Positions 8,860 through 47,218 of a stretch of DNA of 64,000 nt are shown one piece after another. The stretch comes from Tubulanus polymorphus (lineage: Eukaryota > Animalia > Nemertea). Where the stretch lies: assembly GCF_964204645.1 (NCBI RefSeq), contig NC_134029.1, positions 13,852,850 through 13,916,849 of the forward strand, in the 5' to 3' direction. Every line of letters begins with the position of its first letter. The stretch's first letter is position 1. Both the position numbers and the translations under genes were made by a program. The notes under the pieces are model-generated. The model saw only the letters and a program-made list of their open reading frames with translations. It was not told where the DNA came from and searched no databases.

Positions 8860-9769
8860 AGCATAGGGAACCCCGTTAATGAGGAATTTCCAAACAAACT
8901 AATGGATGTTTATAAAAATTCTATTCCGAACCGTTTTGTTACTATTAGAAATACTTCATAACCCATGGGTTTAATGATAAGATTAGAAGTGAAATAAATC
9001 GTAGAAATAGGTATCGAAAATTATCGAAAGCATAAGAAAACTGGTAACCCTCATTATTTCAATAGCTATAAATTGCAGTCAAACTATGTAAATCGCCTGA
9101 TTGCTGAACAAAGAGAGAACCATGAAAATAAATTACTAAATGGCCTTGGAAGTACATCATCATCAAAACGTAATTACTGGGCAATTATTAGAAAACTATT
9201 GGGTGATAAATTTGATAGTGGTAAACCAACTCTCTTTGATCAAGAATCAAACAAAGAATGTACCTCGAGTTTCGAAAAAGCTAACTTATTACTGAATTCG
9301 GTGACAAAAAAATATCATAACGTCAAAAACTTTGATGATTTTCCTGATTTCCCAGACCGATGTGTAAATAATGTTACAATTAACTTAACATTTCCGGATT
9401 CTATCTTCAAATTGATACAACAGTTGCCTATTAATAAAGCCTGTGGTCCGGATGGTATAACAAACAGAATGTTAAAAGCTTCAAAACATCAGGTTTCACC
9501 TCTGATTTCTGAGCCTTATATATAATCGTCAGTCTGGCTTTCTGCCAGGTCACAGTACCTGCGACCAAATTCTAGCAATATCACAGAAATCTCGACGTTC
9601 GTTCTGTATATTTAGACATTAGTGTCGCATTCGATTCAGTTCCGCATAAGCTGTTACTTCATAAATGAAAGGCTTATGGTGTAAGGGGAAACGTTTGGAA
9701 TATAATAGAAAATTATTTAACGAACCGTAAGATTAAGGTAAAGGTGGATGGTATATTCTCTGATACATC
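8860..9769 (+). mobile_element. CR1/L2-group LINE, 5' portion of ORF2 (decayed)
   Basis: ORF 9073-9525 has KANLLL and KACGPDGITNRMLK. Downstream broken frames give LDIS.AFDSVPH.LLL and YGVRG...ENYL.NRKIKVKVDGIFSD. The left boundary is approximate. Confidence 0.85.
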
Positions 9770-9965
9770 CAGGTATATAAACTGCCTATTTTTGTAACTT
9801 GCTCATACAGTTGCTCATGAGCATTTTTTAGGTTTTGTAAGTTGCTCACATCTACTGAGGTGAGCCAGTGTAGGGTTTTTGAAAGTTGCTCACATCTACT
9901 GAAAGAGTTTTTCAAGTTGCTCATACATTCTAAAAATGATTAAATAGGCCTATCAAGCTACCAAA

Positions 9966-10372
9966 TCTTAAACTTAACTACACCAACTATTCAACTTTCT
10001 ATAACATTGTATAGACTAATTTTACTCTAAAATATAGATGTCTCTAATTTGCTTTAGACTGATTTAGCCTACTTACTTACTCTTAAAGCTCACTCCCTAA
10101 TTAGCCGTAAGTCCCTATCAAATTTCCCCTAATTGCCTTAAGACTGATGTCACCCTAAAATATAAATTTCTTAAACTTAACTACACCAACTATTCAACTT
10201 TCTATAACATTGTATAGACTAATTTTACTCTAAAATATAGATGTCTCTTATTTGCTTTAGACTAAATTTAGCCTACTTACTTACTCTTAAAGCTCACTCC
10301 CTTCTTAGCCATAAGTCCCTATCAAATTTCCCCTAATTGCCTTAAGACTGATGTCACCCTAAAATATAAATT
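9966..10372. repeat. ~203 bp near-perfect tandem duplication in the left subterminal region of the KDZ element
   Basis: TCTTAAACTTAACTACACCAACTATTCAAC...CACCCTAAAATATAAATTTC starts at ~9966 and ~10169. Confidence 0.9.
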
Positions 10373-10443
10373 TCATTAATTTGCCTCTACACTAGTATAC
10401 TGACTAGTATACAGTTTACTTTAAACAATCAGATGATAATATG

Positions 10444-10477
10444 TATAAAAGCCTTGCTTCAGTGTGGTATATCAGTC
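10444..10477 (+). promoter_or_regulatory. TATA box plus initiator core promoter of the NRF1-like gene
   Basis: TATAAAA at 10444-10450 and Inr-like TCAGTC at 10472-10477 (+1 A is 30 nt after the first T of the TATA box); ATG follows at 10524. Confidence 0.6.
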
Positions 10478-10523
10478 GGAAAACTTATTTTGTCGTGGAC
10501 ACGTATATATGTAATTATCATTG

Positions 10524-12469
10524 ATGGATACCGCTACGCAACGTGCAGTTAACCGCATTGTAAAAGGTGTAAATTCGTATGTGAAGGACACATCCATGGA
10601 TGCTGGAGCTGTTTTTTTTACACAGATAAAATAACCAAACAAAAAACACTAGGAATTGTTGGATCGCCATTAATGCGCGCAGCGTTCGAGGATAACAAGG
10701 ACATTATTGCGGAGTCTATTGCCAATGGATTAACTTCAGTGACGGTAATACCTCCAGGGGAATGTATAACTGCTCCAGTTGTGGAGTTCAAGTTACCTAA
10801 CATAATGATCGACTATGGGAAACCACTGTCCCGATTACCACTGACAGATTTGCGGGTGATAATTCCAACTGAGGTGTTAATATCCAAATTGATGGACAAT
10901 CCAAATGCTGAAAAATTGCCTCGATGGGGAAATGAGAGTAAAAGAACGCCATGGTGGCCAGCGGATTGCAAGTGGCTAAATCTGAGATATGACAAAAGAG
11001 ATGCATCAGAAAAAAAGGGAGAATCAGCAGCAAATGTGTGTCGCAGAATAATCACTGCGGCATATAGATATCATAATGTATTGAGTCTTACTGGTAAGTC
11101 TATTAAATTTTATGATTTATGATAACTAGCAGGCCATTACCATCAACAAAAACAGGGAACCTCCCTGAGCAGACAGGCCACCATCATCATAAAACATAAT
11201 TTTAATCTTATTTCATTTCTTATTTATGCAGGTGATGAGAATGGTCTTAGCAATGAAGTCACCTCTGCTACAACCGTTGATGCTGCATATATAAACAGTA
11301 CATATGCAATCCCCAGTGACCCCGCTACTCCGTTAAGTATGTAATAAAAATCATATGCTAAAATTAAATAACATCTATTTGATAATCATATATTGCAGTA
11401 TCTTAGTGAAACTGGCTGTTTTGCCAACCTATAGTTTATTACGTAAGAACCTCTACAATTATAGTTTAATACTTTTTTGTACTTTTATACTTCAGTTGAA
11501 GACTTCCCAACCAGCACCAGTAATGAGACGTATATTTTCCTCTTAATTCGACATCCGAAGCCACTGAAATTGATAACTTGGATATTGGTAGTAAGTATAA
11601 AAGTAATATGCATTATTGATGCTATTAGTGAATTCATGTACCCATTATTGTGTATATATTACATTCTCAAAATAATTTAGATTGTTTCTATTTTTCCGAT
11701 TCATAATGATATTTTTTGCCAGTAGGGGGTCATTCATTTATTACGTACGCATTAGGGGAGGGGGAGGGGGTCAGTGCAATTGCGTACTGTAATGCTTAAT
11801 GTATATGAAAAAATGGCCGATTTTGCGTACAGAGGGGGAGGGGGGTTGAAAATTTTAAATTTTATGCGTACGTAATAAATGAATGATCCCTAGGTTTTTG
11901 CTTGTAGATAATTTGGTGCCTATTTCCATTTTCAGATGTTTCTAAAATCATAGAGGCAGTAAATAATGCAAGTGATTTAATGAACTTGAATTTTTCATAC
12001 TTACTGGCGGAAAGTGTTGGTAAGTCTTATTTTGATTTTAAATTGATAATGAAAACGTCACAAAACAGCTTCCCTTGAATGATTGTTCTATTCAGTAATT
12101 ATTCTGTTATTTAAATAGAAAATAGATATTGTGAAGAGAAACAATCTGATGATTCGCTACATACTCCGAATACTACTATGATTTGTGACAATATTCAGAA
12201 CCAAACACATTCGGACAGTATTCCTGCAGGTAAATTGAAATTATATCCTTTTAAGAGGGATGAGATAATCAGAAAGAAAACAAGAAATTTGCAGTTTATG
12301 TGTTTGCTCATATTTTTCATTTCTTTTTCAAACAGATGTGACTAGAGATTTGTCCAACAGCACTCAGAATGTTGCACCAGTCCGCCAAAGTCGTGCCCGA
12401 AAGGTTACCAAAAGAATGGAGGAATGGAAGAAAATGGAAGGGAAACGTCGACGAATTGTTAAATTCTAA
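10524..12469 (+). CDS. Transposon-borne NRF1/EWG/P3A2-family DNA-binding-domain protein; 6 exons, two apparent 1-nt frameshifts (possibly a pseudogene)
   Basis: Exons 10524-11093, 11232-11336, 11496-~11590, 11936-12019, 12119-12229 and 12336-12469, with GT-AG phase-1 introns. Exon 1 has LTDLRVIIP...PRWGNESKRTPWWPADCKWLNLRYDKRDASEKKGESAANVCRRIITAAYRYHN, matching NRF1 QLRAFIP...PGWGKESCKPIWWPEDIPWANVRSDVRTEEQKQRVSWTQALRTIVKNCYKQHG as I recall it. Basic NLS-like C-terminus RKVTKR...KRRRIVKF*. Confidence 0.8.
11726..11890. mobile_element. 165 bp MITE in intron 3 of the NRF1-like gene (PIF/Harbinger-like)
   Basis: TIR GGGGTCATTCATTTATTACGTACGCA ... TGCGTACGTAATAAATGAATGATCCC, with TAG on both flanks. 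Confidence 0.8.
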
Positions 12470-12503
12470 TTGTCAGACATGTAAATATACAAAATTCGAT
12501 GTA

Positions 12504-13111
12504 CCGTATTTTCCGGCCAATAAGACGAGGGCAGTTTTTTAGCATAAAATACATGGATTTCATAAAGCTTCGCCCAATAAGCCGAGGCCCTTCATCAGAG
12601 ATTTTAATTCACTGATTTGTCAATTAGTTCGTCTTAATTGACGATTTAAGAGGCTGACAGTATCGCCCGCCGATGTGTGAGAGTGCTGTGTATACTATCA
12701 TCGCCGAGTGACTGTGCTATATATAGACTCACTCAGCTGATTACTATACACACAGCCATACACGCAGTACGCGGCTCACTGCTGATTTGCGTATATACTA
12801 ATGTATGAACTGACACGTGGTAGTACGATGAACTCGCGCATTATATTAATGTATACCATTGCCGCTGTGCGGTGATGGAACAATCAAAGTAAAAATAAAA
12901 TAGTTCAAAATAGATTATAATTGGTAGTAAACAATGACCTCAAATAAATATCGACCACTTTTCTTGATTTTGACGATCATTGAGAGCATTAGAGTGGCAT
13001 AGATCGGGAAGTGATTTTTTATGTCAGATCGTATCCGCCCAATAAGCCGATCACGATATTTTGGGTAAAAATCTGAGGCTTGAAAATCGGCTTATTGGCC
13101 GGAAAATACGG
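12504..13111. mobile_element. Tc1/mariner (pogo/Tigger-like) MITE
   Basis: TA|CCGTATTTTCCGGCCAATAAG ... CTTATTGGCCGGAAAATACGG|TA. Confidence 0.85.
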
Positions 13112-13206
13112 TATATGAGTATTTTAAACTTTTTGATCAATATAGTTATTGCTTGCTTACAAATGATTGCTTTCTTTCCTTATCAGCATATAAACACACA
13201 CCGTGG

Positions 13207-14035
13207 CAGGGTCCCTACAGATCAATCATTCTAGAATTCAAGGACTTTTGAAGGATAGAATTTCAAATTTGAACGAGTGTCTGCTGCATCACTTTCATAT
13301 CCAAATTACGGTCCTAAAACGGTACTGCTTATCTTGGTAAACCGGTAATTTGGTGGTTGTATAAGAAAATTTTTATCTTTTATCCTGCTACACTTGATTT
13401 CTAACTGTCTAATTGAGTACAAAAATCCTAGTTCCAACAGTACTAATTTAGGTGTAGTGTATCTCTTCTGTTCAACTACAAACAAAAATGTACAGAAATG
13501 AACTTAAAATTCGCAGATTGAACATTTTGCAAAACGTTTATCTTAAGTTTTCAGAAGCCAATCCTTAAGGTCTGGATCCTGAAGCCTGATATATTCAAGT
13601 GATACATAATTACTGTCTCAACTAATAGTGAAGCAACACTTTAAACCCTTGAAAATACTGATTGATTAAAATAACAGACCCGCTAATCAGTACTAATTTC
13701 CCAACCAGGCAGTCTTAATTAAATAATGCTGAACAATTCTGAACATAGTTCTTTTGTCCAAGAGATACAATGAGAACCACAGCAGACACTATGTATTAAT
13801 CATACTACAATTAGCTGGTGAAAGACTGTGTGTATAGGGCCTATGACTACTAACTAGGCCTAATCTTGGAAAACACTTGTAACCTAAACATTTTCTCATT
13901 GCCAATTTCTCAAAATTCAAGGAGTTTTCAAGGACTTTAGGGCATTTTGCTCCAATTAAAGGATATTCAAGGACCTTGAAAAACATTTTTGGTTTAGAGG
14001 AGTTTTCAAGGAATCAAGGACCCGTAGAGACCCTG
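13207..14035. mobile_element. MITE with CAGGGT...ACCCTG termini
   Basis: CAGGGTCCCTAC ... GTAGAGACCCTG with internal TTCAAGGA repeats; flanks CGTGG / CATGG (possible 5-bp TSD). Confidence 0.65.
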
Positions 14036-14568
14036 CATGGTGTAATCAGTGTAGAATATAACATTGCAGAACAATACTTGGACCGTGGACAAATATGCAT
14101 CAAGTGATAACATAGAGACATAATCTTGAAGAAACACTCTACGGTATTCATGTTGCAGCAACAATTCATAAAAAAAATATTGCTTGTGTTTGATCAGTTT
14201 CATTTTCTGAGCGTGTCAAAAAAAGTTTGTCAGTAAAAAATTAAAATGCGCATCCCGCATGCAGAAATGTTTTTTTTTCACTATTTGAATTTGGATTAAG
14301 GCCCGTCACTTTTCCAAAAAGGGCTGATGAAAACAAAGGTATTTCTTCGTATGGCCTAATCCCACAATAATGATTAAGAATAAGTCAGAAATGTTTCCTT
14401 TGAGCTAATGTCTTATTCGATTTCGAGTTTACAAAAATACTCCATGTTTAATTAATTATATTATTTACAAAAAGAAATTTGAGGCAAAATACAGAACAAT
14501 TCAGGTAGGCATAGTGAAACCTGGTAAATGTGTTATGATACAATACATATTTCAGATTCAATTTTTTT

Positions 14569-17500
14569 TTACAACTTTACATTTTTATCCTGATTTTTAA
14601 GGACCAGAAATAATGCTACATGCCAAACAAAGTTTTCTGGCTTCATGTAAGCAAGTTGACTTTTCAGGTGAATAAGTCCCGAATTGTTCATTCACTTGTG
14701 AATTAATATTGGAAAGATCCACATTGCTGCAGTAAGTGTCTAGTTTATAGCCAGCACAACACCTACAAAATGGAAAAAAATTAGATACATATATACATGA
14801 CGAGTAGATGGGGTGATGAAAGATATAATTCACGAGATAATACATACCCTGTATGATTTACCCAATGCATTCTGTCCACACAAAATATAGTGTTCTTGAA
14901 AAATTCTGGTTCTCTGTAATTAGAATAATTAATGGACTTACTTCAATAACAATCAACCTCGGTTAATCACTATCACTTGGGACTGAGCTCTTTAGTATCT
15001 TGATAACAGGTAATCCGTTATCTATGAATTACTTAATATTTCTATGGTCAAATATAAGTGCACGGGCCAATTGCCTAAATACTTACCTATTAAGAGCATA
15101 TTGATGCAGCTTGCATGCATTATCATACACGATCATAGACGGTGGCCTGGGGAATCTTGTCTTAAATATTGAAAATGGAAATCGTGGCGATTCATGAGAC
15201 TCCATGGCCTATAATACAATATACAAACGAATCAACAGATACAGGGTATAAGAGGTAATTGCTTTTAAAAAAAATAATTCTACTGAATGAGTATGTTCAC
15301 CTGAAATCCATAGCAGATTCCATGCGGACAAAACACAGTAAAAATCCCTGGTGTAAGAACCCTGTGGCGTTTTGACATCTTATTACAGGCATCATCCCGG
15401 CACATGTCATTATCCTTCTTATCATCCATTACATATGCTGCATCACTAAAAAAACACATCTGCCCTTATATATCACATTGACAAATGAAAAACATGTTGA
15501 ACTGAAATTACATTAATAATACCATTACTTAATCAATAAATCTTCCTAGAAAAGTATTCATTACCTGTGGTGTTTAGGTAAACTCGGGAAAAATGACAAA
15601 CTCTTGAAAAGATTTTCGTATGGAGCTGGTGTGTATATATGATCCTTGTTGCACTGCAATCAAAAGTAAATCAGACCATAAGCTCATCAGGCATTATCTA
15701 AAATATGTATTTACGATGTAACAAAAACTTCTCACATTTTCTCTAAATTATCATCCATTAAAAATTCATTACCTTAAAACAAGTACGTATTTTCTTCAGA
15801 AGTTCTCTTATCAAATCAATGTAGTCATTATGCAGATTACCATCTGATAAACTCTGACTGATAAACTCAATCAGTATAGGTGCATCTATCAGTAGCTGAT
15901 TATATATCTCTGAATTCTTACTATCAAATGTTTCAGTTATCTCGGACAGCGCGTGATCCAAAATATCTATGACGCGATCCAAATCATTGGTCTGTAGAAA
16001 AGCACATGCTGGACCGTTGGCACTGATTGCTTGAAGGAATTTTGTCTCAGATGATTTACAATTTAATGAGTTTGAAGCTGACACTTTATTTTTGAGCGGG
16101 TTAAGGTGTTCATATTTGCTGATTCGTAGAATTAAATCCTGCTTTTCTTCTGGTGTCAGTGGTAAAGGAGATCTTGGTTTTACGTGAGTTTTTGACGAAA
16201 CCTTCGGCCCCCAGGCATATTGTGAAAGTAATTTTCTTGCTTTGTTGTCTGGTACAAACACTCTATCTTTGTGATGTGTGCCTGAAATCCTCGTGCCTGC
16301 ATTATGAAAATTCATCAACTGTATCGACTTGAGAAAATCTTTTCTAAAACCCAAATCAACACCGTCGCAAACAATAACCTAGAAAAGAAAACCTTTATTA
16401 CATATAGTTCCAGGAACCCTACCGTCAAGTTGGTATTTTCAATCAGTCAATTATTTACCTGAGGATGTTTTCCACACTGAACGCATTGGAATTCTCTAGC
16501 CCAATCAAAATCTAGCAGATGCATCAGACCATTCCATGCACGCTGAAGCGTATGGAGAGGAATAATAGGAATCTTGAAAAGCGTTCGTGATGATCTTGTC
16601 AAAGCTCTGAAAAATATATTCAAATTAGACTAATCCCTAAATTAGAAATAATTGAATTGTAGTATAAAGTATCTGAAACAGCAAACCTGTGGAATGTGAA
16701 GTCTGATTCATTAGTTTCTGGATATGGAATAGATTCACTGTGACACCAATCACGATAGCGAAGAAATGTGATCGCAATGACTATTAAATCTGCATTCCTC
16801 GCATACTAATTTCTTCAAACGTGGTTGCCAATGGATAACACTTGTCTTATCATCCAGAGTCACACTGACAACTAGAGGAGACACTGACAACTGATTAACA
16901 GTGCAAACATCCACGGGATCACTGATATTCTGCACATCATAAAGCTTATTAACGGCATACGCATGAATGCAATACTGATTTTCTTCGCGTTTCATGAAAG
17001 TCGATACAGTTTCACCCTCGACTGCCCATTTAAGAGAAAGAAGTCGATTTCTGCTGAGGTGTGCATTCTTACAGCTACATGTTAACACTTTAAATCCCTC
17101 TCCAACACAGAAAAACTGTAAACTATGCAAAACAACATGCACATCTTTCAGAATAGTTCCTTGATCATTGCTATCGGCTACAATATACGTTTGGCCGTTT
17201 ACGTTCCAATGGCGATGAGTCTTGTTCAGTTCACCTACATAATACACGTGCGGACCCAATTCCAAGTCAACTGCAAGAATGGTGTCAATATGCCTATAAG
17301 AAAATTGAGAACGGATATGAGAAATATATTCATTTTTCAATAGATGTGAAACCTTTCATTTAATCACAAACATATTATTTTAATGGAAATTTTTTCATTA
17401 TAGACAAGTAAGAAGTATTTTTTATCTTTAGGGTAGACACTGAGCAACTTTCATGAGCAGCTCCCATAAAATTAAAATACCTGAGCAAGTAAATGAGCGG

Positions 17501-17859
17501 CGTGCATAAATGGCCTACCCACCTGACCTGAGCAAGTATACATGAGCAGCAACTAGTTTCTAGTGTAATTAAGGCCATTACGGCATTAGGCCTATATATA
17601 AAATGCTGTGCTTAGAGGCTCATTTAGCTACATAGCATGCAAGGATTCACAACGAAAAATAACTTACTGGAGAGATGTCGCAATGATTTACGTCGCTGCT
17701 TGACGACGACGGTGTGTTTGTCGTTCGTTGACGTTGTTGATGCCGACCGTTTTTTTGGAGAACTGCGACTGTGGTTCCACATTTTTTTGGTTTTGGATTA
17801 CCGGCACTATCTCCGACTCCGGTGCCAGCGATCATATCATTGTATGATCGCCGAGGCAT
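14569..17859 (-). pseudogene. Spliced KDZ-type transposase (CxC/HMGXB3-like), frameshifted
   Basis: Exons ~17859-17668, 17352-~16687, ~16606-16459, 16378-15773, 15653-15565, 15445-15301, 15208-15087, 14913-14848 and 14762-14569, with GT-AG borders. Motifs: SWIM-like CSC...CIH and CEEC....CDH; FQCVQCGKHPQ|VIVCDGVDLG; SFFPSLP; CNK...LTPGIFTVFCPHGICYGF; ESPRFPF; IVYDNACKLH; VDRMHWVNHTGC; INSQVNEQ...LKSQLAYMKPENF. Indels near 16750 and near 14685 break the frame. The exon 1 assignment is less certain than the rest. Confidence 0.85.
17440..17550. promoter_or_regulatory. Three spaced direct pairs of TGAGCR motifs in predicted transposase intron 1
   Basis: CTGAGCAA-N4-6-ATGAGCRG at 17440, 17481 and 17528; the same hexamer occurs in both element ends. 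Confidence 0.55.
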
Positions 17860-18223
17860 TCTAAGAAAATCTATCTATGGATATAACCTTTCTGCGTGAG
17901 TGAGTAGTAGTGCAAAGACTTCGAAGCTTCTGCTCGGATATTGTCTGATTAAACGTCAGCCGGCAGCGCCCAGTGACACAATTCAATTCAATAAAGATTT
18001 ATTGCAACCAGGTTACCGAAATAGGTTCGAATCCCGAAATATTTTTCGTGCAACGTGCGCGTAGCGTATGATTGTAAAAATCATAATCATACAATAAAAC
18101 TTTATTGATCGGATTAATTTTGCAATAAAACTTCCGAGTAAAAGTCAATGAAGTATAGGCTCGCACAAACTGATACCGTCTACGCCTACGGCACGTCTTT
18201 TGCGAATTGCTTTCTGCTCGATG

Positions 18224-18400
18224 ATGAGCAGTGTTGACTGCTCACCCAATGAGCAGTGTTGACTGCTCACCCAATGAGCAGTTTTGACTGCTCACCCAGG
18301 TCCGCGAGCGGAGCGATCTGCCGTGCCTGAGCAGTTTACAGTGCTCAGCATGAGCAGAAAGCAATTCTTAGAAATGCTCATGCGCAACTCATGTGAGCAA
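18224..18400. repeat. Right subterminal motif array: three 25-bp units plus further TGAGCA/TGCTCA sites
   Basis: ATGAGCAGT(G/T)TTGACTGCTCACCCA x3 at 18224-18298; TGCTCATGCGCA at 18375-18386. Confidence 0.9.
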
Positions 18401-18436
18401 CTTACAAAAAGCACTGAATTTTATAGCTCATACATC

Positions 18437-19760
18437 ACCTGATAACTATGTAAACAGCTCCGTACCACAGGGATCAATTTTAGGTCCATTGCTATTTTTG
18501 TTGTATATTAATGATCTTCCCGATGCTGTGTTTTTGTATGCAGATGATACCTCCTTATATTCTAATATTGATTCAACTGACCCGTACCCTGGTAATCAAG
18601 CTGTCCAGTCAGATCTTGATAATATCTCGAAGTTGGCACTTTGCTGGGATCTTGAGTTTAAGCCTAGTAAGAGTTGTGATGTCACATTTTGTAAAAGCGA
18701 CATCAAGAATTATAATCCTTTGTTTTTAAACGGTATTCGTATCCCAAGTGAAACGTCACACAAGCACTTAGGTTTTATCTTAGACTCAAATATACGTTTC
18801 CAAAAACATGTTGAATCTATTTATGAAAAGGTACAAAAATTTTAAATTCGTTAAAATCACAACACCTGAACACAATCTACAGTTCATTTATATACCCACA
18901 CTTTGAGTATTGTGATGTAATATTGAGTAGCACCAACAAAACAACTCTAGATAGGCTTGAACGGCTCAATTACCAGTCTGCTATCATAGTATCTGGCTGT
19001 ATCACGGGTTCTAGTAGAGAAAAAGTTTTAGATGTCGTTAACTGGCAATCATTATCATGTATAAATTTTCAAAATGTATGCACCCCTCTTATGTATTATC
19101 ACTCTTCAGTACCTACCAAAATATAGCTGAAAGAAACTTGAAAAATCAACAACCTTTTCGTATACCCCATCGTGTACCATGTAAGATTGAGAATTCCCCT
19201 TTATTCAGACTTATGGCTGTCTGGAATGACACTTGTAGAGGTTCGCCCTATTCAAAACTTTTCAATTTTTAAATCTAGAGTCTATAAACGATCATCACAA
19301 GTTTCTACAATCACGACAGCAATGATTCCAAATTTAAATCGTAGAGAAGAAATGTCTTTAAAGAGACTACTTGTAGACCTCTTTTTACGATCCCAGCTAT
19401 ATGATCATAATTTTAGCAATGTGCTTCATCCAAATTGCCCTAATTGCAACAATAAAAGACTCGATACAGTTCATTTCCTTTTAAAATGCCAGCACCCTCC
19501 TCATTGCGATAAAATCCATTGGCTTCTCCAGGACCTTGCTAATGAAATTCAATTATCTACAATGCAGCAATTCTTTTCAAAACGACTTATTGATAAATGT
19601 AAATTTTTATCGTTTGGTAGTCCAGACCTGAATTATAATACTAAAATCAGTATTATCTCACTAACCGCAAAATTTGCAAATCTAAATCATTATGACTACT
19701 GACTGTGAAATGATCAAAACCGTGTGATAGTGGTGATGCTGTTATTGTAATAACTACTAT
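18437..19760 (+). mobile_element. Same LINE, 3' portion (RT core and C-terminal Cys/His region)
   Basis: VPQGSILGPLLFLLYINDLP, LYADDT, HKHLGFILD and C-terminal CPNC...HFLLKC. Rejoins the 5' part in frame (FSDTSPDNYVNSSVPQG) once 9770-18436 is removed. Confidence 0.9.
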
Positions 19761-35500: not shown

Positions 35501-37500
35501 TGATATCCTATAGTAAAAACAAGAAATTGGAGAGTTCAGTTCATATATAAGTGTGGTATTTGTTACAGCCGCATCAAACAAAGTATTGTATAATTATTAC
35601 ATTCGCATATAATAAAGCTGCTTTTTGTATTGTCATGGCTGTTCATTGTTAGTATCAGGAATCTGTCCTCCTTAAATCACACTTGGCGACGAGGAAAATG
35701 TTTTAAAGATGAGTCTAATTAGTTTATGTTCCGAATATGTTGAGTCGGATGACTGAGAGAATTTCACCGACCGGCTAGAACAGTATTTTGTAGCCAATGC
35801 CTTGGAAGAGGAGGACCGGAAGCGAGCCGTTCTGCTCACTGTTTATGGATCGGCGACATATTCACTCATCCGTAGCTTAATTGCACCATCCAAACCCAGT
35901 GATAAGACCTATGCAGATCTAGTAAAATTGGTGAAAGACCATAAAAAGCCGCAAATGAGTGCTATCCTGGCCAGGTTTAAATTTAACTCGCTAGTCAGGG
36001 AGAAATCTGGCACTGTTTCGCAATTTGTAGCAGACTTGAAAGGGCTGGCTGACAAATGCAAATATGGGTCTGAACTGCCGATGATGTTACGCGATCGTTT
36101 TGTAATCGGGGTGAATGACGAACGCAATCAGCGTCGCCTGTTGTCGGAATCAGATGCCCTGACATTCGCTAAAGCAGTGGAGATAGCTAGGTCCTTAAAA
36201 ACTGCAGAGGAGAACATGAAAGAGATATCTGGGTCAAACCCTGTAGTCAATCGGGTTTCGAACGCTAGACCAAGCCATGTTAAACCGAAGGACCCGAAAC
36301 CGCAAATTAAGCCTCATAGTCAGAATCAGCTTCCTAAAGAATCAGCGGGTCGAATTCAGTGTTACCGTTGTTTAAGGCCTCATAAGGCTCATGTGTGTCG
36401 TTTCAAAGATGTCAAATGTAATTTCTGCCAGAAGATTGGTCATATTGAGAAGGCTTGTAATGCTAAAAACAGCAATAAAGGTCGTGAAAACCAGCGTAGA
36501 AATCGCCGGTCTGAGAGACAAGGGCAAGCATACCGTGTAGAATCTTCAGCCCTCGAGAACCAATATGAATTAATGGGGCGCATCACAGCGATTTCTGATG
36601 TTCACAATCGTGATCCCGCTAGTTATAAATAATCGTTCGGTAGAGATGGAGCTCGATACTGGGGCTAGTCGTTCTATAATGTGTCAAAAGACATTTGATT
36701 CGTTGTGGAGCGAGGTAAATCGACCTGTTATTAAAAAGTCAGAGTTAGACTTGCGGTCCTATACGAACGACATCATCGATGTTGTGGGATACGTCGAAGT
36801 GGAAGTTCAGTATCGCGGAAGAGTTAAACCGTTGGCTCTTTGGATTGTCTCGAGAGACGGCCCAACATTATTAGGGCGTCCATGGCTACGTGCGCTGGAC
36901 ATTCAGATCAAAGACGACCGTGCGAAGGTTAACTTCGTGACTCCGCATTGTACTTCAGTAGAAGAATTGTTGAAAAAGTACGACCAGGTTTTCAAAGAGG
37001 AACTTGAAACTTTCAACAAAGCTAAGATAAATTTGAAAGTGGATCCGAATGCCACACCAATATTCATCAAAGCTTGTTCGGTGCCGTATATGATGAAGGA
37101 GAAAATTGAGAATCAACTCGACCGTGAAGTTAGAGACGGAATCCTAACGCCAATCGAAACCAGTGAATGGGCCAGTCCGATAATGCCTATGTTAAAGAAA
37201 GATAGATTCGGAGAGGATTTGTGGCGACTATAAACTGACTGTGAATAAAGTAACTAAATTAGATTCGTATCCGATACCTAAAGCGGAAGATTTGTTTGCA
37301 GGACTTGCTGGTGGGAAAAAGTTCACGAAACTCGACTTATCGCAAGCCTATCTACAGATGGAACTAAAGGAATCGTCAAAGCAGTATACAACTATCAACA
37401 CTCATAAAGGACTATATCGTTACAATCATATGCCTTTTGGTATTAAATCAGCCCCTGGAATTTTTCAGAGGCACATTGAGAACATATTGAAGGGTATCCC

Positions 37501-38398
37501 CAGAGCTGCAACCTCAGAAAGATGTTGTCAGTACAATTTTTTGAGTTTGTCAGTATTTTCTTGAGGTTGTCAGTATTTTTCCAAGAATAACGCGACACGA
37601 AATAAGCTTCCAGTTCCTGTCCAAAAATGGAATTTCTAGCCAAAAATAAATGAGTCGACCACAAGATTAAGATATTGTAAGAATTAATGCTAGGATTTAT
37701 ATATTTTACATCGAAAGTTTCGATGTAAAATGAATCTGTAAATGAATATGTAAAATGAATCATGTATATCATTTCAGTTTTACATATTCTATCTTGATAT
37801 TCAATAGCAATGTGGAGATATACATGTTGTGATTTATTCTTTTAATCCATCTACGTATCACTACAAAACTCTTCAATAAATAGCCGTTTTTATTCTAAAT
37901 CTAATTGCTTTATTAATTCATAGCCCCTTATTACAGTTTATGATTCATAAAAGTCTTACTCGTAATTTAAAGCTTTTATTATCCTTGAATTAAATTATAA
38001 GACGCGTGCGCCAGAGTTCTCCTTGTGCGTCTCAGTGGTGTTACAACACAGCGCATGTATTAATAGCCATATATGTTCTCTATTGATCAATGCTACTACA
38101 GCAGGGAAGTGTGTCTGTGTGAGACTATAGTATTACAAAAGCATTGAACGCTGCGCTGGCTGCGCGCCAACACAACTGTTGAAAGACAAAACAATACTGA
38201 CGGGAATAATGACTGTTGATAAGATGCTGATAGCATTCCACTGCTAATTGTAGGCCCACTATTGACTATTGAGTCAATTATTTTAGACTTTCAGAATTCT
38301 ATTCAAGACCGTACTAAATAAAGAGCGACCGTAACACCGTACACAATAGGCCACGGCCGTATGAAAATAAGGTGGAAGCGTACGGGTTGGCAGCTCTG
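37501..38398. mobile_element. MITE inserted in the Gypsy RT
   Basis: CAGAGCTGCAACC ... GGTTGGCAGCTCTG; flanks TATCCC / TAATCCC. RT reads through as LKGIP|LTFIRMDDVL when the insert is removed. Confidence 0.85.
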
Positions 38399-38631
38399 TA
38401 ATCCCTCTCACATTCATCCGCATGGATGATGTATTAGTGACTGGTGTAGATGACCAAGATCACATCAGGAATCTGGGTCAAGTGTTGAGCAGGTTACTGG
38501 AAGCAGGTTTACGTGTTAAGCTTCCAAAATGTGAATTCATGTTGCCTGAAGTCACTTACATAGGAAAACGTATCAACTATGAGGGTATCCGTCCTACGCT
38601 TGATAATGTTTAGGCTATCCAAGATGCCCGG

Positions 38632-41600
38632 TGTCGAATTATTGCCTATGGAACGCTTCGAGGTTTCAACATCAACAACACGAATTAATCCATCTTTTCC
38701 TGGATAGACCAATTTGATTTCTCCCAATTTCCACTGCTGCCTTGGAAGATCTTTATCAATAAATAACACAATATCTCCGATCGCAACTGATTTGGAGACA
38801 ACCATTTCTTTCTCGCGCTCAACTGAGGTAGAATCTCTTGGATCCACCTACACCAAAACTGACGAACGACTTCCTGACTATGTCGCCACTTGTTACGCAA
38901 ATTGAACAGAATGCAGTCTACACTACTCGGCGCAGTATCTCCGCTGACTCGTCCCACGATAAAATGATTTGGTGTCAATATAGGTTCATTTATATCTTGA
39001 CCAACCAACGGTCTCGAGTTCATTAGTCCTTCAACTAATGTAACGACTGTACGAAACTGCTCATCGTTTAATTCGCTACCTCCGATTATTGCTTTTATCG
39101 AACACTTTGCGGCTTTAATCATTGTTTCAAATACACCACCTGTGGACTAACAGGTGGATTCCAAATCCAGTTTACTCCGTTATTTGCTAAGTTATTCGAT
39201 ATCTTATCTTGATCAAGACTATCAAGACAATCGACGAGCTCCTTCAACTCTGATTCTCCTGAAACGAAACTTCCACCGTTATCTGATAAGCATCTTTTGG
39301 GCCAACAACGCCTCGCCGCAAATCTTGAGAATGCGCAAAGGAACGAATCTGTATCCAGGCTATCAGTAGCTTCGAGATGTACCGCTCTGACTTGCAGATC
39401 GACCATCAAAAGGAGGTATCTTTTCGCCCTAGCACGACCTCTGCCCACCTTAACTGAAAACGGACCAGCGAAATCCAAACCGATTTCTGAAAACACATTC
39501 CATGATGAGTTTACTCGAATACTAGGCAGAGGAGCCATCTGTTGACTGAGACGCTTGTTTCGTAACCCTCTAAGACAATACGCACAGTTGTTCGCGATTT
39601 TCTTAACCACAGTCGACCCTTGTAAAATCAGATATTTTCTACGAAGAGTGTTAAGAATATGTACTGGTCCTACAATATGTGCAGTATCATCATGTGCCTG
39701 TACTATCAAAAGTCTTGTAATGTCACTCGACTTTGACAGAATTATCGGAAATTTTGTTTCTTCCGGTAATAATTAGCATCTTTCGACTCTCGTTCGCGAT
39801 CGAAGAACTCCATTTTCGTCCAGGTATGGGTTCAATCCTGCGATTTTACTACTGAGTAATACATTTTTCTTCTTTTCTAATGCTACTATTTCTTCACTGA
39901 AAGCTTCTCTTTGACCTACTTTCACAAACTCTACTTCCGCTGCTTTCAGTTCATCAGGAGACAATACACGATCATAATTTCTGCTTGACTTACACGTTAT
40001 ACAGTTCAATACAAATCGCTTAATCCACGCATAAATTCGAACCAGCGAAAACTTTCCTGTCGAGGATATACCACCGTTTTGTACGGGTAACCATCTAGAC
40101 CATCGACTAGGTTTCAAACTCCACACAAATTCATCGAGTGGAATATTCGTCATCGAATCATCATTTTCTTTGCGATTTTCTGTATTTTCGACATTTAAAT
40201 CCAACGCACGAATCATAAACCCAGTAGGTTTTTCTGCATCTGGATTTTCGACTGTTTCATGAGTAATATAATCCCTCCAATCTTCACGAATTTCATCCAT
40301 TGCTTTGGATGATATTTTGATCTCTGTTTCTGGCCACGAGTCTGAGTTATCACATAGAAATTGTGGTCCGTGCCACCATAACTCTTCATCTTTCAACCGA
40401 ACTATACTGCAGCCTCTTGACGCGACATCTGCTGGATTACAGCTTGTTGGTACGTATCTCCACTGAGACGGAGAGGTAACTTCATGAATTTTACCAATAC
40501 GATTGGAAACAGAAGTCTTGTAGCTTCGACTTTCTCCTCTTAACCAGAACAAAACATCATAAGAATCGCTCCAGAAAGTAGCTTTTTCTATTCGTAATTT
40601 CAGCACTTTACATACTCGTCTTGTCAACTGCATACCAATTTCCATTAACTCTAGCTTCGGAATTTGAAATACTCATTGTTGGAGCCAACTTCGATTTTGC
40701 AGTAACTAGTGTGACAGTAACTGAACCATCTTCATATGTAGTTAACTGATACACTGCTTTGGAGTAAGCTCTAATCGAAGCATCACCGAATGTATGTAAA
40801 GTCACCGATTTTACATCTTTTCGAGTCTTCAAACATCTTGGTATGTGGAGACATGAGATCAATGACAAATCTTCACACCACGATTTCCATTTCTGATGTA
40901 ATTGTGACGTAAGAATCTCATCCCATTTGAGTCCTTTCAGCCAGGTTTCTTGCAGAATGATTTTCGGTTCAAGGACTTTAGGTGTTATAAGTCCCATCGG
41001 GTCAAATATCCGAGCGATATGACTGAGAACTTCACGTTTCGTTATACTGTCGTGGTATTCTGGTACGTTAACTTGATATTCAAATGTGTCTGATTCTGCT
41101 TTCCAGTAGACACCCAGAACTTTGGTTTTTGGCAATACATTGTCTTGAATCTTCAATCTATCGGATTCCGGAATATCTTCTAAGTCATTTCTGTCATTTG
41201 ACATCCATTTTCTATAATGAAATCCTCCATCTGTAGCCAAAGCTGTTAACTGTTGTCTGGTGGCTATGGCAACATCTGGGTCATCCATTGAACAAATTGT
41301 GTCATCCATGTATGTTTTCGAATCAACTGCATCAGCTGCAAGGGGATAAACTTCTTTCTTCATTTTCGCATGAGTCTGCCATACATACTGAGCACAGCAG
41401 AGAGAGTATGTTCCACCGAATACATGACTTTTAAATTCATAGACTTCAATTTCACCGGATATCTGATTTTTCCAGAGAAATCTATGATACTTTCGATCTT
41501 CTGGCTTCATTTCTATTTGCAAATACATCTGTGAAAGATCTGCACCCATAGCTATGAGTCCACTTGTTAATGGAAACTTCAAATAAATCAGCTTGAAGTT

Positions 41601-44600
41601 TCGGTCCGGCATAAGCTTCGGAGTTCGGACTTTTTCCTTAGTACTTCGACGATCCATCAAATACGATCCGTACTTTTGTTGTTTCTCTATCTGGCTTAAC
41701 TATCGGAAAATGAGGTAAATACCATGCATCAACATTTTTGAACGATTTTAACGGACCTTTGAATTCAATGTTATCTTCGGTCAGGTATTCTGCGATTGTT
41801 TCTTCATACGATTTTTTGATGTCCGGATTGGAATCAATTTTCTTCATTAATAATTTGAGTCTGTTCAACGCTACTGACTGATAATTTTCCAGATAGGGAC
41901 TTTCATCATTCCAAGGAACGCCAATTTCATAACGCTTGCCGTCGAACTTCAACAATTGCTCAAGCTTTTTCTGAGCTATTTCTTCGTCAACTGATAATTT
42001 AGATCTTGATTCATCGAGATCCGATTTTTCTATCTCCCAAAACGCTTTAAGGGTAGAATCTAACGAAATTTCTTCTTCATTCGGATTTTCACGATTAGCC
42101 AAAATCGTTTGACAGATTACATGAGTCTGTTTCTTCACGTTATGTGACTGATTTACATTGTCACCGATACACGTCCAACCGAGCAGACAAAGACGAGCGA
42201 TTGGATCCGACGGTTTTGGACCGCATATTTCTTTCAAACAGTACAGTAGATGTCTACAATCTTTTCCAAGTATTCCCTCAATTGTAGAATTAACACCAAC
42301 ATCTGGAAAGGGTATACCTTGCAGATGTGTCCACCAATTACCTATCTTCGACCATGCAATCGACACCATACTGTCGCAAACGTTATCCACCACGTAAAAT
42401 CGCTGCGTGGCTAAGATTTTATCTGAACCGTTGTAATGTCTTATGTTTACATCACAAACTCTCGATTTCGTTGAAATTTCCGAACCATCGAATACTTTAA
42501 CCGTCAAAGTTTCATTGTTATATTTCAAATTACGCATATGCAATACAGCGTGAGTACTGAGGTAACTAATGTCACTGCACTCATCTAGAAGAACTATTGT
42601 CTGACGTTTATCATGACCATCACCAATATAGATAGGAAGAGTTCTCATTCCAACGTTCACTGAACTATCTGTAGCATATATCTGCTTCGCCATAAACGAA
42701 CCATTCTTTTTTACGTCAGTTTGTAATGACGACTGGATATTTTCTTGATCTGTAGTTTCATCATCTTTATTTTCCCGATCGTAAGTTTCTGATTTCTTAA
42801 ACTAACTGTGTGTTAGAGTACAGCCAGATACTCCACACTGTCGTCTACTATTACAATCCGACCCACGGTGATACGGATGTAAACATCGAAAACATGAACC
42901 AAGCCTTTTTGCAGTAGTCCAACGTTCATCGATTTTCATCTTTCGGAAACGGTCGCATTTTACTTCAGTGTGTTCCATTCCACACACGCTACATTTTACT
43001 GAATTACCCACGAAGGTACCACTACGTTTATTCGGTAATTTTCTATCAACAGTCTTCGAATCATGATCTCGAGCTTAACCAGTCATAGTACTGTACAAGC
43101 AATATCTCAGGAATCTTTCGAGATACAATGCTATACCAAGCACCATCACCGAGATAATCACCTTTTCCTCCAGCTTTCAATTTTGCCACTGCTGGTTCAT
43201 CTGTACTGTCAACTACGTTCACGAAGGCCGTCCAGTAACTGTTGAATGTCAACTTATTTCCATCAAATACAGGAACTTTTATGCGTTCAAGTTTGGAAAC
43301 AGCTGTAACAGACGATTCATCTTCTTCAAGGCTAATTCTCTTTCTTGGAGTGGACTTTTCTTTTTACTCATGTCATTATATTCATTGACCGAACGATTCA
43401 ATAACAGAGAGCGAGCCTTTTCTATTTCATATTCTGTTGTATTAAAAACCTCTTCTGCTTCAGCTTGAATATTCTGAACGCCTTTACTATTATTTTCTGT
43501 TAAGTGGAGTTGTTCTAACTCATCTAGTACTGACAGGACTAAATCTCTTTTCTCATGAATATTGTCTATTATCTCTAGTACTTGACTACCATTCCTTTCT
43601 AACACCTTTGCTGTCAATTTTGTTAGGAGTCTACTCAAAGTGCTTTTTTCTATTTTCTTAAGTTTTTTCAGCTTACCTAAACCACGTTTTGAAGGGCTGT
43701 TCGAATATCACGGATACCGGACACCGGACACCTAAATACCGGATACCGGATACTCGAGATTGCGGAGTATATAGCGCATCGGGTCTAATGATCAGCGGTA
43801 AACGGCAGTTCGTGTGAGATCTAGTAGAAGAATAAAAGGCCTATATTATTTTCATAATACATCGGTTTATGCTTTTCAAGTACAGTAGCATACAAATGTT
43901 ACCGGTTTAGACAATTCAATACCGATTTATTGCTTCCGAGTAATAACACGATTACATACGACAGACACGGTAACACACAGTGGACAGAAAATATTTTTTA
44001 TCATTCTGCCAATTTGAACGGATTACCGAATAGACCGTTACCGTTTTGGGCAGAGGTACTGTACAATACAAAATATCTATATCATTCAGTTTCACGAAGA
44101 AGGCCATTTTAATCAAGTTAAGCGTTATTGACGATCTATATTTTCATGATCTTTAGAATCAAATTTAACATCAGGGTAAATAGTCACTTCGAACTATGGT
44201 AGGAACCGGTATTCGACGAACTGATTTTTGAAGGTTATACCAAAACAATTGGTGTCCAGTGGTGTTGATTTTCGACGACCGCCATGGACTCAATTTCATT
44301 TTTAGGGACATCGTGATTGAGAATGAAATGTAGACATATCGTCCAATAAATAGAATATACCGAATATTCTCCTCCATAAAATAAGAAAACGAATTTTTAT
44401 TCTTTGTTTGTAAATACTTGTATTTCATTGGTGTTCAGCTCAACTATTCCATCGTAAATCAACAAAATGTACAGATCTTTAAAACAAACTTTATTAGAAG
44501 GAACTTTAGAACTGCCAGACTCGCTTATGGCCTTCCAACTTGAGATATAGGGCCTAGCAGTACTCAGTCCTATTAATGAAAGGATTTTACAGAAAAACCA

Positions 44601-45326
44601 AAAAGGGCCACCAATACATATCCATCACCGGTGAAGTAAGATAATAAAAAATGAATATAACGTTTAACTTCACCTAACCAAAGAAAAACAGTATTCAGAA
44701 AGAAATATGTATAATATTGAGATCGATGATGACACTAAAAACGTGAAAGCAGGCTGTATATTAAGACAAATAAGTTGGGTAGCCGCTGTAACAATTTGAC
44801 ATAAATGAATTGTGTGTCGCCGCAGTACTACTTACAACAGCACGGAAACGAATCCTTAGACCCGACGCGCTATATAATCCGCAATCTCGAGTATCCGGTA
44901 TCCGGTATTTAGGTGTCCGGTATCCGGTATCCGTGATATTCGAACAGCCGTTTTGTAGTACTATCGGTTGCATCAACATCAGCCATGATTGCGAAATTTT
45001 GTCAGCAGTTACTCAAGTCTAATTTTCTGATGTTTATACTTGCTGTTTCTGATGTTCTATTTCTATTTCATGAGTCAGCTTTACAGTTTTCTTGTGTTCC
45101 CGGGTTTCGGCACCATTTTATGTTCTTGTTTATCCTCGGGTCCTGGCATATAAACTATAAAACTGGCCCTTGAATCAGGGAAACTAATCTATCTGACTCT
45201 AACACCTGCTTCCATATTTGATCAACAACTTTATTATGCAACAGCTATACAAAAAAATCAACTCAAAAATTTGATATGTAACAGATGTAACAATTTTCAA
45301 TATAAGATCACAGGTTCGAATCTTCA
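38632..45326 (-). mobile_element. BEL/Pao LTR retrotransposon nested antisense in the Gypsy (5' LTR kept, 3' LTR lost)
   Basis: Minus-strand gag Zn knuckles (42802-43011), protease-like LLDECS, RT (YLPHFP, RIVFDGS, YMDD), RNase H FGDAS, integrase (LDFAGP, SDNG). PBS TGGTGCCGAAACCCGGG (tRNA-Phe-like) at 45115-45099; LTR about 45121-45326. Confidence 0.92.
43695..44949. mobile_element. Mutator-like (MULE) non-autonomous element inserted in the Pao gag
   Basis: ~95 bp TIRs GGCTGTTCGAATATCACGGATACCGG... and a 9-bp TSD GTTTTGAAG / GTTTTGTAG. Confidence 0.85.
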
Positions 45327-47218
45327 CCCTGTGCGAGAAAGGTTTGGCTGTGGTTTATGGTGTCACTAAGATGCACCAATATCTATATGGTCGTCAGTTT
45401 GAAATTGAGACTGATCAACAGTCGTTGGTAACTTTGTTGGGTGAAGCCAACGATATCCCAGCTACTGCATCGCGCCGTGTTCAGAGATGGGGGTAACTGT
45501 TGTCAGGTTATGATTATTGTATTAAATATCGTAAAGGAGTTGAAAATGTAGCTGACGCGTTAAGTAGGTTACCAGTTAGTGATAATCAAGGGGGTACGGT
45601 ACCTCAACCCCCAGCGTTTGTAAATCTTATGCAATGTATTAATCATGTAAATTCACCACTGACAGCTAAGCAGATTCGACACCTGACTGACAGGGACACA
45701 GTCCTATCAAAGGTTCGGGAGTTCATCCTGTCAGAAGACTGGTCAAACATTCCAGAGGACCAGCAGGCAGACTTCAAATCTCATAAACGCCGTTCCATTG
45801 AACTCAGTGTTCATTGTTGCTGTGTTTTATTGTAATGCCTACTGCTAGTCACAATCGTGTTATTGAAGAAGTTCATGATGCCCATCCAGGCATCTATATT
45901 ATTAAGGCAGTATGACGTGGTATTTGCTGGTGGCTAGGAATCAATGAGAATCTTGAAGAATGTGTCTGCAAATGTTCAATTTGTCAGGAGAACCGTGCAA
46001 AGTTGTCAGAGGCTCCTTTAAGTATGTGGGATTTTCCCAAAAGCCCATGGTCACGTATTCACATAGACTACCTAATTCCATTTCAAAATCGTATGATTTT
46101 AGTTGTTGTTGATTCATTTTCGAAATGGGTCGAAGCTACAATTATGTACAGTAGGCCTACTACTTCTTTTGCTACAATTGAAGAGTTGAGACGCATTTTT
46201 GCTGTCCATGGTTTACCAAAGTCTCTAGTGTCTGATAATGGTTCTAACTTTACTAGTAGCGAGTTTGAAAATTTTTGTATAAATAATGGAATCAAGCACA
46301 TAAAGAGTGCACCTTACAAGCCTGCTTCTAATGGACTAACTGAGCGAATGGTTCAATCAATCAAAAATGGTTTGAAAAAACTTTCTAGGGGTAGTTTGCA
46401 GAATCGATTAACTGGATTTCTGTTTAGATATAGGAGCCAACCTCATTCAGTAACTGGGGTATCGCCAGCTGAGTTATTGTATCGTAGAAAGCTGCGTACA
46501 CGCTTGAGTTTGATTTCTCCATGTTTAACTGAAGTAGTCGAAGCACGTCAGGAGAGCCAAAAGAGGAATCACGATAAGAGGAAAACATTGTGTAGAGAAA
46601 TCTCTCAAGGTGACTCAGTTTTTGTTTGAGAATGCCCCGGGTTCGAAGCCAAATGGTTGCCGGGTACTGTGGTTAGTAAGTTAGGATATAGGTTGCTTGA
46701 AGTAAAATTGTTAAGTGGTAGAAACGTTAGGAAACATGTGGTCGAAACTCGTTTAAGGTAAACTGATGATGATCAGTACATCGATCAATGTACATCAGTA
46801 TGGGAATCTGAGGGTCCATGTCCTGAGAGGGGAGATGTTGAAATTAGTGCTGTTCGAAGTTTAGATCCCCAAAAAAATTCTGGGAAGGTGCCAGCACTGC
46901 GACGTTCTAGCAGGACTGTTAAGAAACCTAACCGGTTAATTGAAAGCGAGGTTGTCTAGAATACTTGTATGTTTAAGTGATGTAATGTTTGCCGATGCCT
47001 GTATTTGGAAACTATGCATGTAAAATTAAGAGGGGATAATGTGGTATTTGTTACAGCTGCAAAGTATTGTGTAATTATTACATCCGCATATAATAAAGTT
47101 GCTTTTTGTATTGTCATGGCTGTTCATTGTTAGTATGAGGAATCTGTCCTCCTTAAATCCTCCTGCATCCACCCGGACATCACAATAAGCGCGTTAATTC
47201 AGGGGAAATCCTGCTTAA

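Follow-up and report, generated by a model that had tools for sequence, protein, structure and literature searches.

The transposons most similar to the element analysed here are those of the Kyakuja-Dileera-Zisupton (KDZ, PF18758) superfamily and Harbinger3_DR. For Kyakuja, the accessible parts of PMC12730594 report 7-bp target-site duplications and CA..TG ends without terminal inverted repeats, and for Zisupton and Dileera 8-bp duplications; fungal consensus sequences presented in the same source contain arrays of short motifs near the ends. Harbinger3_DR combines a transposase with a separate Myb-like protein, which binds both to a 9-bp motif repeated in the subterminal regions and to the transposase (PMC9710019, as far as accessible). 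The third system of relevance is the NRF1/Erect wing/P3A2 family (PF10491; PDB 8K3D, 8K4L). As described in the accessible parts of PMC10810270, each monomer in the NRF1-DNA crystal structure reads TGCGC, with R206 contacting the TG, the side chain of R244 contacting G4 and N242 contacting the base opposite C5, while base 3 (C3) is read by the main-chain carbonyl of R244.

We analysed a stretch of 64,000 nucleotides from the ribbon worm Tubulanus polymorphus (referred to as the window), which contains a two-gene cut-and-paste KDZ transposon with convergent genes, both of them damaged in this copy. Like the known KDZ elements, it carries a KDZ domain, a multi-exon transposase gene and short motif arrays near its ends, but it adds a separate gene for an NRF1-type protein. 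It shares the 7-bp duplication with Kyakuja (ATACATC, in a single insertion) and differs from it by its CA..TC termini and imperfect terminal inverted repeats, whereas the duplication length of 7 bp at most distinguishes it from Zisupton and Dileera. The association of a transposase with a separate DNA-binding protein and repeated subterminal motifs resembles Harbinger3_DR, although the transposase belongs to another superfamily and the second protein to another DNA-binding fold, and the binding and interaction demonstrated for Harbinger are predictions for our element. The NRF1-type protein corresponds to NRF1 in its fold, its dimerisation and DNA-binding parts and residues R206, N242 and R244. 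In contrast to NRF1, it has no N-terminal region, belongs to a group characterised by Pro243, is encoded within a transposon and has TGAGC as its putative site.

Boundaries and copies of the transposon

The limits of the 8,660-bp element (9770-18429, no strand assigned) were derived from reads of the empty site together with reads containing other flanks. In run X5, 20 reads fuse the left flank straight onto position 18430 and thus represent the empty site, while 22 reads and one contig of run X1 carry other DNA behind 18430 and represent other insertions. The element interrupts the reverse-transcriptase frame of a LINE, which is restored by its removal, and it is flanked by two copies of the target-site duplication ATACATC at 9763-9769 and 18430-18436 (both on the + strand). 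The A at 18430 recurs in reads from other copies and may therefore be part of the element, in which case the duplication could be 6 bp long; a duplication of 8 bp was rejected. The imperfect terminal inverted repeats of about 59 bp extend from 9770 to 9828 (+ strand) and from 18371 to 18429 (- strand) and match in 46 of 63 columns, or with 87% identity over 39 bp by BLAST. A TGAGC on the - strand overlaps the right terminus, consisting of the last four bases of the element and the first duplicated base (18426-18430). There are three transposase loci on three contigs, and the other copies are known solely through reads and RefSeq proteins.

Several further repeats are located within the element. 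A 204-bp tandem duplication (9966-10379, 96% alike) lies between the left motif array and the start codon of the NRF1-like gene. An intron of the latter contains a small element (11726-11890) of 165 bp, which has inverted ends of 27 bp and TAG on both sides and resembles a PIF/Harbinger-type MITE; its bin shows about 100 times the read depth of the host transposon. High-copy insertions are present between the two genes at 12499-13116 (with 30-bp inverted ends), ~13270-13881 and ~14213-14304, the latter two being skipped in reads or contigs. As judged from translations, the rest of the window (e.g. 293-1789, 35757-46626 and 52196-56766) consists largely of open frames of LTR retrotransposons and LINEs and of other repeats. 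A contig of run X2 (18253-18962, depth 29) crosses the right end of the element into the flanking LINE, which suggests transcription across the right terminus at the locus in the window; the contigs show neither strand nor start.

The transposase and the NRF1-like protein

The transposase gene (14572-17859, - strand) consists of multiple exons, most of which match protein P0001 with 100% identity, while P0008 matches with 88-100%. The nearest named proteins are from T. polymorphus itself, one of them being identical to most transposase exons in the window. P0001 carries PF18758 according to a precomputed table, and P0008, which represents a copy of the locus protein with 91% identity, matched this family with an E value of 3.4e-6 and 27.3 bits at a cut-off of 26.6. 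Five transposase introns, including that at 17293-17666, are spliced in contigs of run X2. This run was taken as RNA-derived solely from the spliced contigs, with no run being on record as RNA, and depth was not used for ranking genes. The start codon is probably located at 17859. The window copy contains frameshifts near 17687 and 14685 and apparently misses a segment near 16700; a one-base difference at 17687 is present in 16 of 34 reads.

In the NRF1-like gene (10524-12488, + strand), exon 1 (to 11093) codes for the dimerisation and DNA-binding domain and the later exons for a low-complexity tail. The exon extent was taken from protein P0006, and no spliced joint of this gene was among the joints listed. 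The gene carries a frameshift at a T run (10612-10619). Because both genes are damaged in the window copy, their products would need to be supplied by another copy. The domain matched PF10491 with an E value of 8.8e-14 and PDB entry 8k3d with 4.5e-9, and a word-index protein search yielded none near the length of the query. A model of the domain built from 70 sequences reached a pLDDT of 89.6 and matched 8k4l and 8k3d; its three significant matches to solved structures are all NRF1-DNA complexes. It superimposes on the DNA-binding domain of NRF1 with an rmsd of 2.3 over 101 columns, while sequence identities to the solved chains are about 22-32%. Folding of the single sequence gave an unusable model (pLDDT 38), and no solved structure was matched by the 36 residues preceding the frameshift when these were taken alone.

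The original prediction had raised the possibility that the base-contacting residues differ from those of NRF1. By mapping the 8k3d alignment onto the numbering of PMC10810270, we found all three of them, R206, N242 and R244, kept in the window protein, but only 3 of the 10 other, backbone-contacting residues. P0006 has Leu at position 206, and so do 6 of 22 X5 reads. At position 243, the window copy has a Leu encoded by a CTG codon, which is one transition away from CCG.

Six members of the homologue set (n = 125) group with the window protein, and the resulting 7-member group received SH-aLRT values of 98 and 99 in two quick trees. For the first of these, 11 of 126 rows were omitted (the non-NRF1 hit P0120 and 10 short domains); the second was calculated from a random draw of 35 sequences in addition to the seven group members. 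The group contains the window protein, its second copy, another ribbon-worm locus, an 'Ewg-like' protein of Ptychodera flava and three unnamed sequences; all of this is read from long-branched sequences, and the grouping may be an artefact. Pro243 occurs in six of the seven members compared to none of the 118 other homologues, 116 of which have V or I at this position, while N242 is kept in all seven members and residue 244 is either R or K throughout. By this test, the window protein is not an NRF1 orthologue, as it falls into a separate long-branched group without the N-[VI]-R loop. The Pro243 group includes P0028, a second NRF1-like locus of the same species with 52% identity, and P0064, an NRF1-like protein of an acorn worm. 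Most of its members end the domain at the same 'TG' as exon 1 in the window, which hints that they share an intron position. On another contig, LOC141912150 (NRF1-like, 91%) and LOC141912151 (KDZ) are consecutive RefSeq loci. This second locus appears to hold both genes and, with their adjacency deduced from the consecutive locus numbers, the KDZ and NRF1-like genes most likely move together.

The TGAGCA arrays and the base reading of NRF1

About 12 half-sites at the right end of the element and about six at the left had originally been proposed. Indeed, 18224-18400 contains 11 exact copies of TGAGCA/TGCTCA and one TGCGCA (18381-18386), and 9800-9923 contains six TGAGCA sites, five of them on the - strand. 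The right array as a whole (18204-18399) includes the three expected 25-bp units, located at 18224-18298 with 98% matches, and four inward-facing 20-bp palindromes. It precedes the likely start of the transposase gene by 366-540 bp, and the left array lies 601-724 bp upstream of the start codon of the NRF1-like gene. A third cluster, which had been missed by the original prediction, is located in the first intron of the transposase gene, 881-988 bp from the element end (17441-17548, + strand), and consists of five TGAGCA and one TGAGCG in direct pairs 12-14 bp apart. The enrichment of the hexamer at the termini over background was confirmed. With 34 TGAGCA sites in 55,200 bases outside of the element, only 0.11 sites are expected at the right end and 0.09 at the left, and TGAGCA is the first-ranking hexamer of 18224-18400 and of the intron cluster and the second-ranking one of 9780-9930. 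The Poisson p values are 6e-19 for the right array, 8e-10 for the left array and 3e-8 for the internal cluster, for intervals picked after the fact and with the right-end value inflated by tandem copies.

Both 12-bp palindromes were found as described, TGCTCATGAGCA at 9812-9823 within the left terminal repeat and TGCTCATGCGCA at 18375-18386 within the right one. They are the sole palindrome matches in the window with zero and one mismatch, respectively. Because they occupy mirror positions of one terminal inverted repeat, they represent one independent case. Dimer binding in NRF1 geometry would be compatible with the terminal-repeat palindrome, present once per end, but not with the arrays: half-sites facing outward around a 2-bp centre occur in only two pairings, namely these palindromes, whereas most commonly the sites form pairs that face inward or repeat directly at a distance of 12-14 bp. 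By chance, an NRF1-spaced pair is expected in 7% of clusters of the size of the left end, and in 35% of cases for any of the three clusters.

Collapsing the duplicates leaves 17 sites in the element. Six of these are preceded by CA, versus two of the 34 background sites (p = 0.012), and 14 of the 17 are followed by a purine versus 9 of the 34, at a position outside the five bases read by the NRF1 domain. The stretch 18204-18367 folds back on itself (z -7.65), and another copy of the element lacks 18218-18335, as indicated by three X5 reads and by loose ends found in run X1. With 7 of the 11 right-end sites lying wholly or partly within the stretch missing from this one copy, a large part of the right array is not fixed.

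TGAGC differs from TGCGC in base 3 alone (C to A), which is the base read by the main-chain carbonyl. An arbitrary 6-8-mer contains TG.GC followed by a purine in 0.2-1.5% of cases (~1%) and comes within one mismatch of TGCGC in 3-14%. Both terminal 12-mers of the element match sequences tested in the accessible parts of PMC10810270. According to Table 2 of this source, human NRF1, which has the same three residues, binds weakly to TGCTCATGAGCA and to ATGCtCATGaGCAT, and the Kd for the hybrid site is 2.23 µM, compared to 0.31 µM for the consensus. Because human NRF1 binds the exact palindrome only weakly, a 'retuned' protein as originally suggested would indeed be needed, although the base-contacting side chains themselves are unaltered. 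A Pro beside the carbonyl-reading residue would be a plausible route to a changed base-3 preference.

NRF1 is blocked by CpG methylation, and the original prediction had suggested that the element's protein might be insensitive to it by using a CpG-free site. TGAGCA contains no CpG, as stated. The suggested insensitivity found no support: CpG is barely depleted in the window, with an o/e ratio of 0.90 (0.59-1.48 across seven retroelement stretches), and 47 CpGs at an o/e ratio of 1.24 are present between the right end and the first intron of the transposase gene (17667-18429). With this overall ratio and the CpGs retained at the right end, methylation escape as an explanation of the motif is possible but unsupported. 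A derivation of TGAGCA from TGCGCA by CpG decay was rejected, since decay gives TGTGCA/TGCACA, neither of which occurs in the three clusters. For Spiralia in general, the accessible passages of PMC10658182, which cite no ribbon-worm methylome, report no clear targeting of transposons by methylation.

Candidate readers of the arrays

We propose that the arrays are subterminal repeats of the two-gene KDZ transposon and that its own NRF1-type protein may mark the ends by binding to them as TGAGC half-sites, acting as a Harbinger-style accessory protein, and we give this reading slightly better than even chances. The divergent NRF1-type protein would bind to the half-sites and then help to bring the transposase to the ends; the loop residue flanked by N242 and R244, which is altered, would have shifted its base-3 preference from C to A. 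Its role in transposition would correspond to that of the Myb-like protein of Harbinger. Because both genes read inward from the ends, each array lies upstream of one gene, and the same binding could also regulate transcription, a role which the cluster in intron 1 would fit. Self-recognition by the NRF1-like protein, as envisaged from the beginning, would be the best single explanation. It is favoured by the kept fold and the three kept residues, the change at base 3 only, the neighbouring residue changed across the subfamily, the low chance of such a fit for an arbitrary motif, the NRF1-spaced palindrome in both terminal repeats, the preceding CA and the joint occurrence of the two genes. 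Speaking against it are the weak binding of this palindrome by human NRF1, the rarity of NRF1 spacing, the purine behind the hexamer, the small number of kept backbone contacts, Leu243 in the window copy and Leu206 in P0006, the long branches of the tree group and the short arrays of fungal KDZ elements.

The arrays may instead be ordinary transposase sites read by the cysteine-rich zinc regions of this enzyme, so that the likeness to the NRF1 site would be coincidental and the NRF1-like gene would have another function or be mere cargo. We regard this as possible but rather doubtful. Cysteine clusters of KDZ proteins have been hypothesised to recognise DNA (bioRxiv 2024.12.17.628972, accessible parts), a MULE transposase binds to its own subterminal repeats (PMC5499845, accessible parts), and the mirror-image layout and mixed spacings of the arrays would suit a transposase. 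Short repeated motifs were also counted by eye in the first 400 bases of fungal KDZ elements, namely GGGCC nine times in Kyakuja-2_AuPo and ACTCC seven times in Zisupton-2_AuHe and ten times in Zisupton-4_AuHe, based on 15 KDZ rows (14 of 51 plus one) of Table S1 in the accessible material of PMC12730594. However, recognition by the transposase requires a motif coincidence of ~1-10%, and this in an element carrying an NRF1-fold gene with the base-reading residues kept. Moreover, a TGAGCA array is absent from the fungal ends (first 400 bases of the rows examined) and from all 18 KDZ loci obtained in a metagenome scan, none of which had an NRF1-like hit either. Because these loci mostly lack element ends (the seven closest are contigs of 1.4-8 kb without recognisable ends, and the other 11 match with ~30% over a short stretch), the absence of arrays there is a weak argument. 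Searching viral contigs and prokaryote genomes with the KDZ alignment and with the NRF1-like domain gave no match. The sole hit of the terminal motif in viral contigs, L019, has 57% GC and no KDZ or NRF1 match and was taken as chance.

A host factor could also read the sites, namely NRF1 at the single hybrid site or else a protein unrelated to it, or the density may stem largely from local duplication and fold-back structure, with most copies having no protein reader. Human NRF1 binds the hybrid 12-mer of 18375-18386 at ~2 µM (Table 2, accessible parts of PMC10810270), and the nearly identical 25-bp units, the fold-back and the copy with the missing stretch are in line with this reading. Still, we consider an explanation of this kind improbable, because the motif recurs in three clusters that lie apart and whose flanks are unrelated, among them those in both terminal repeats and in an intron, with 17 sites remaining after the collapse of duplicates, and because the window is devoid of a canonical GCGC-NN-GCGC site.

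We found no paper describing a KDZ or Zisupton element with an NRF1-type gene or with subterminal repeats in the literature within our scope, outside of which most subscription papers and the Repbase entries lie. While the two-gene design is known from Harbinger, its realisation in a KDZ transposon, with a subfamily of the NRF1 fold and a terminal motif to match, appears to be new. As no demonstration of KDZ end recognition was found in the accessible literature, the element offers a concrete candidate, pairing a host-type transcription-factor fold with a motif predictable from the NRF1-DNA crystal structure. If binding of the arrays by the element's NRF1-type protein holds, KDZ would become a two-protein system like Harbinger and use a third kind of DNA-binding fold, and the subfamily with Pro243 would represent a natural experiment in a one-base specificity change of the NRF1 fold. 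Only tentatively, and against what we consider the better odds, we extend this proposal to an animal KDZ lineage ranging from ribbon worms to acorn worms, in which an NRF1-fold subfamily with an N-P-R/K loop might serve both as the end-recognition subunit of the transposase and as a transcriptional switch, its specificity having moved to a site without CpG to which host NRF1 hardly binds. If true, the NRF1/EWG fold would have its first role in a transposon, and one would have to ask whether host NRF1 and the mobile subfamily have exchanged genes.
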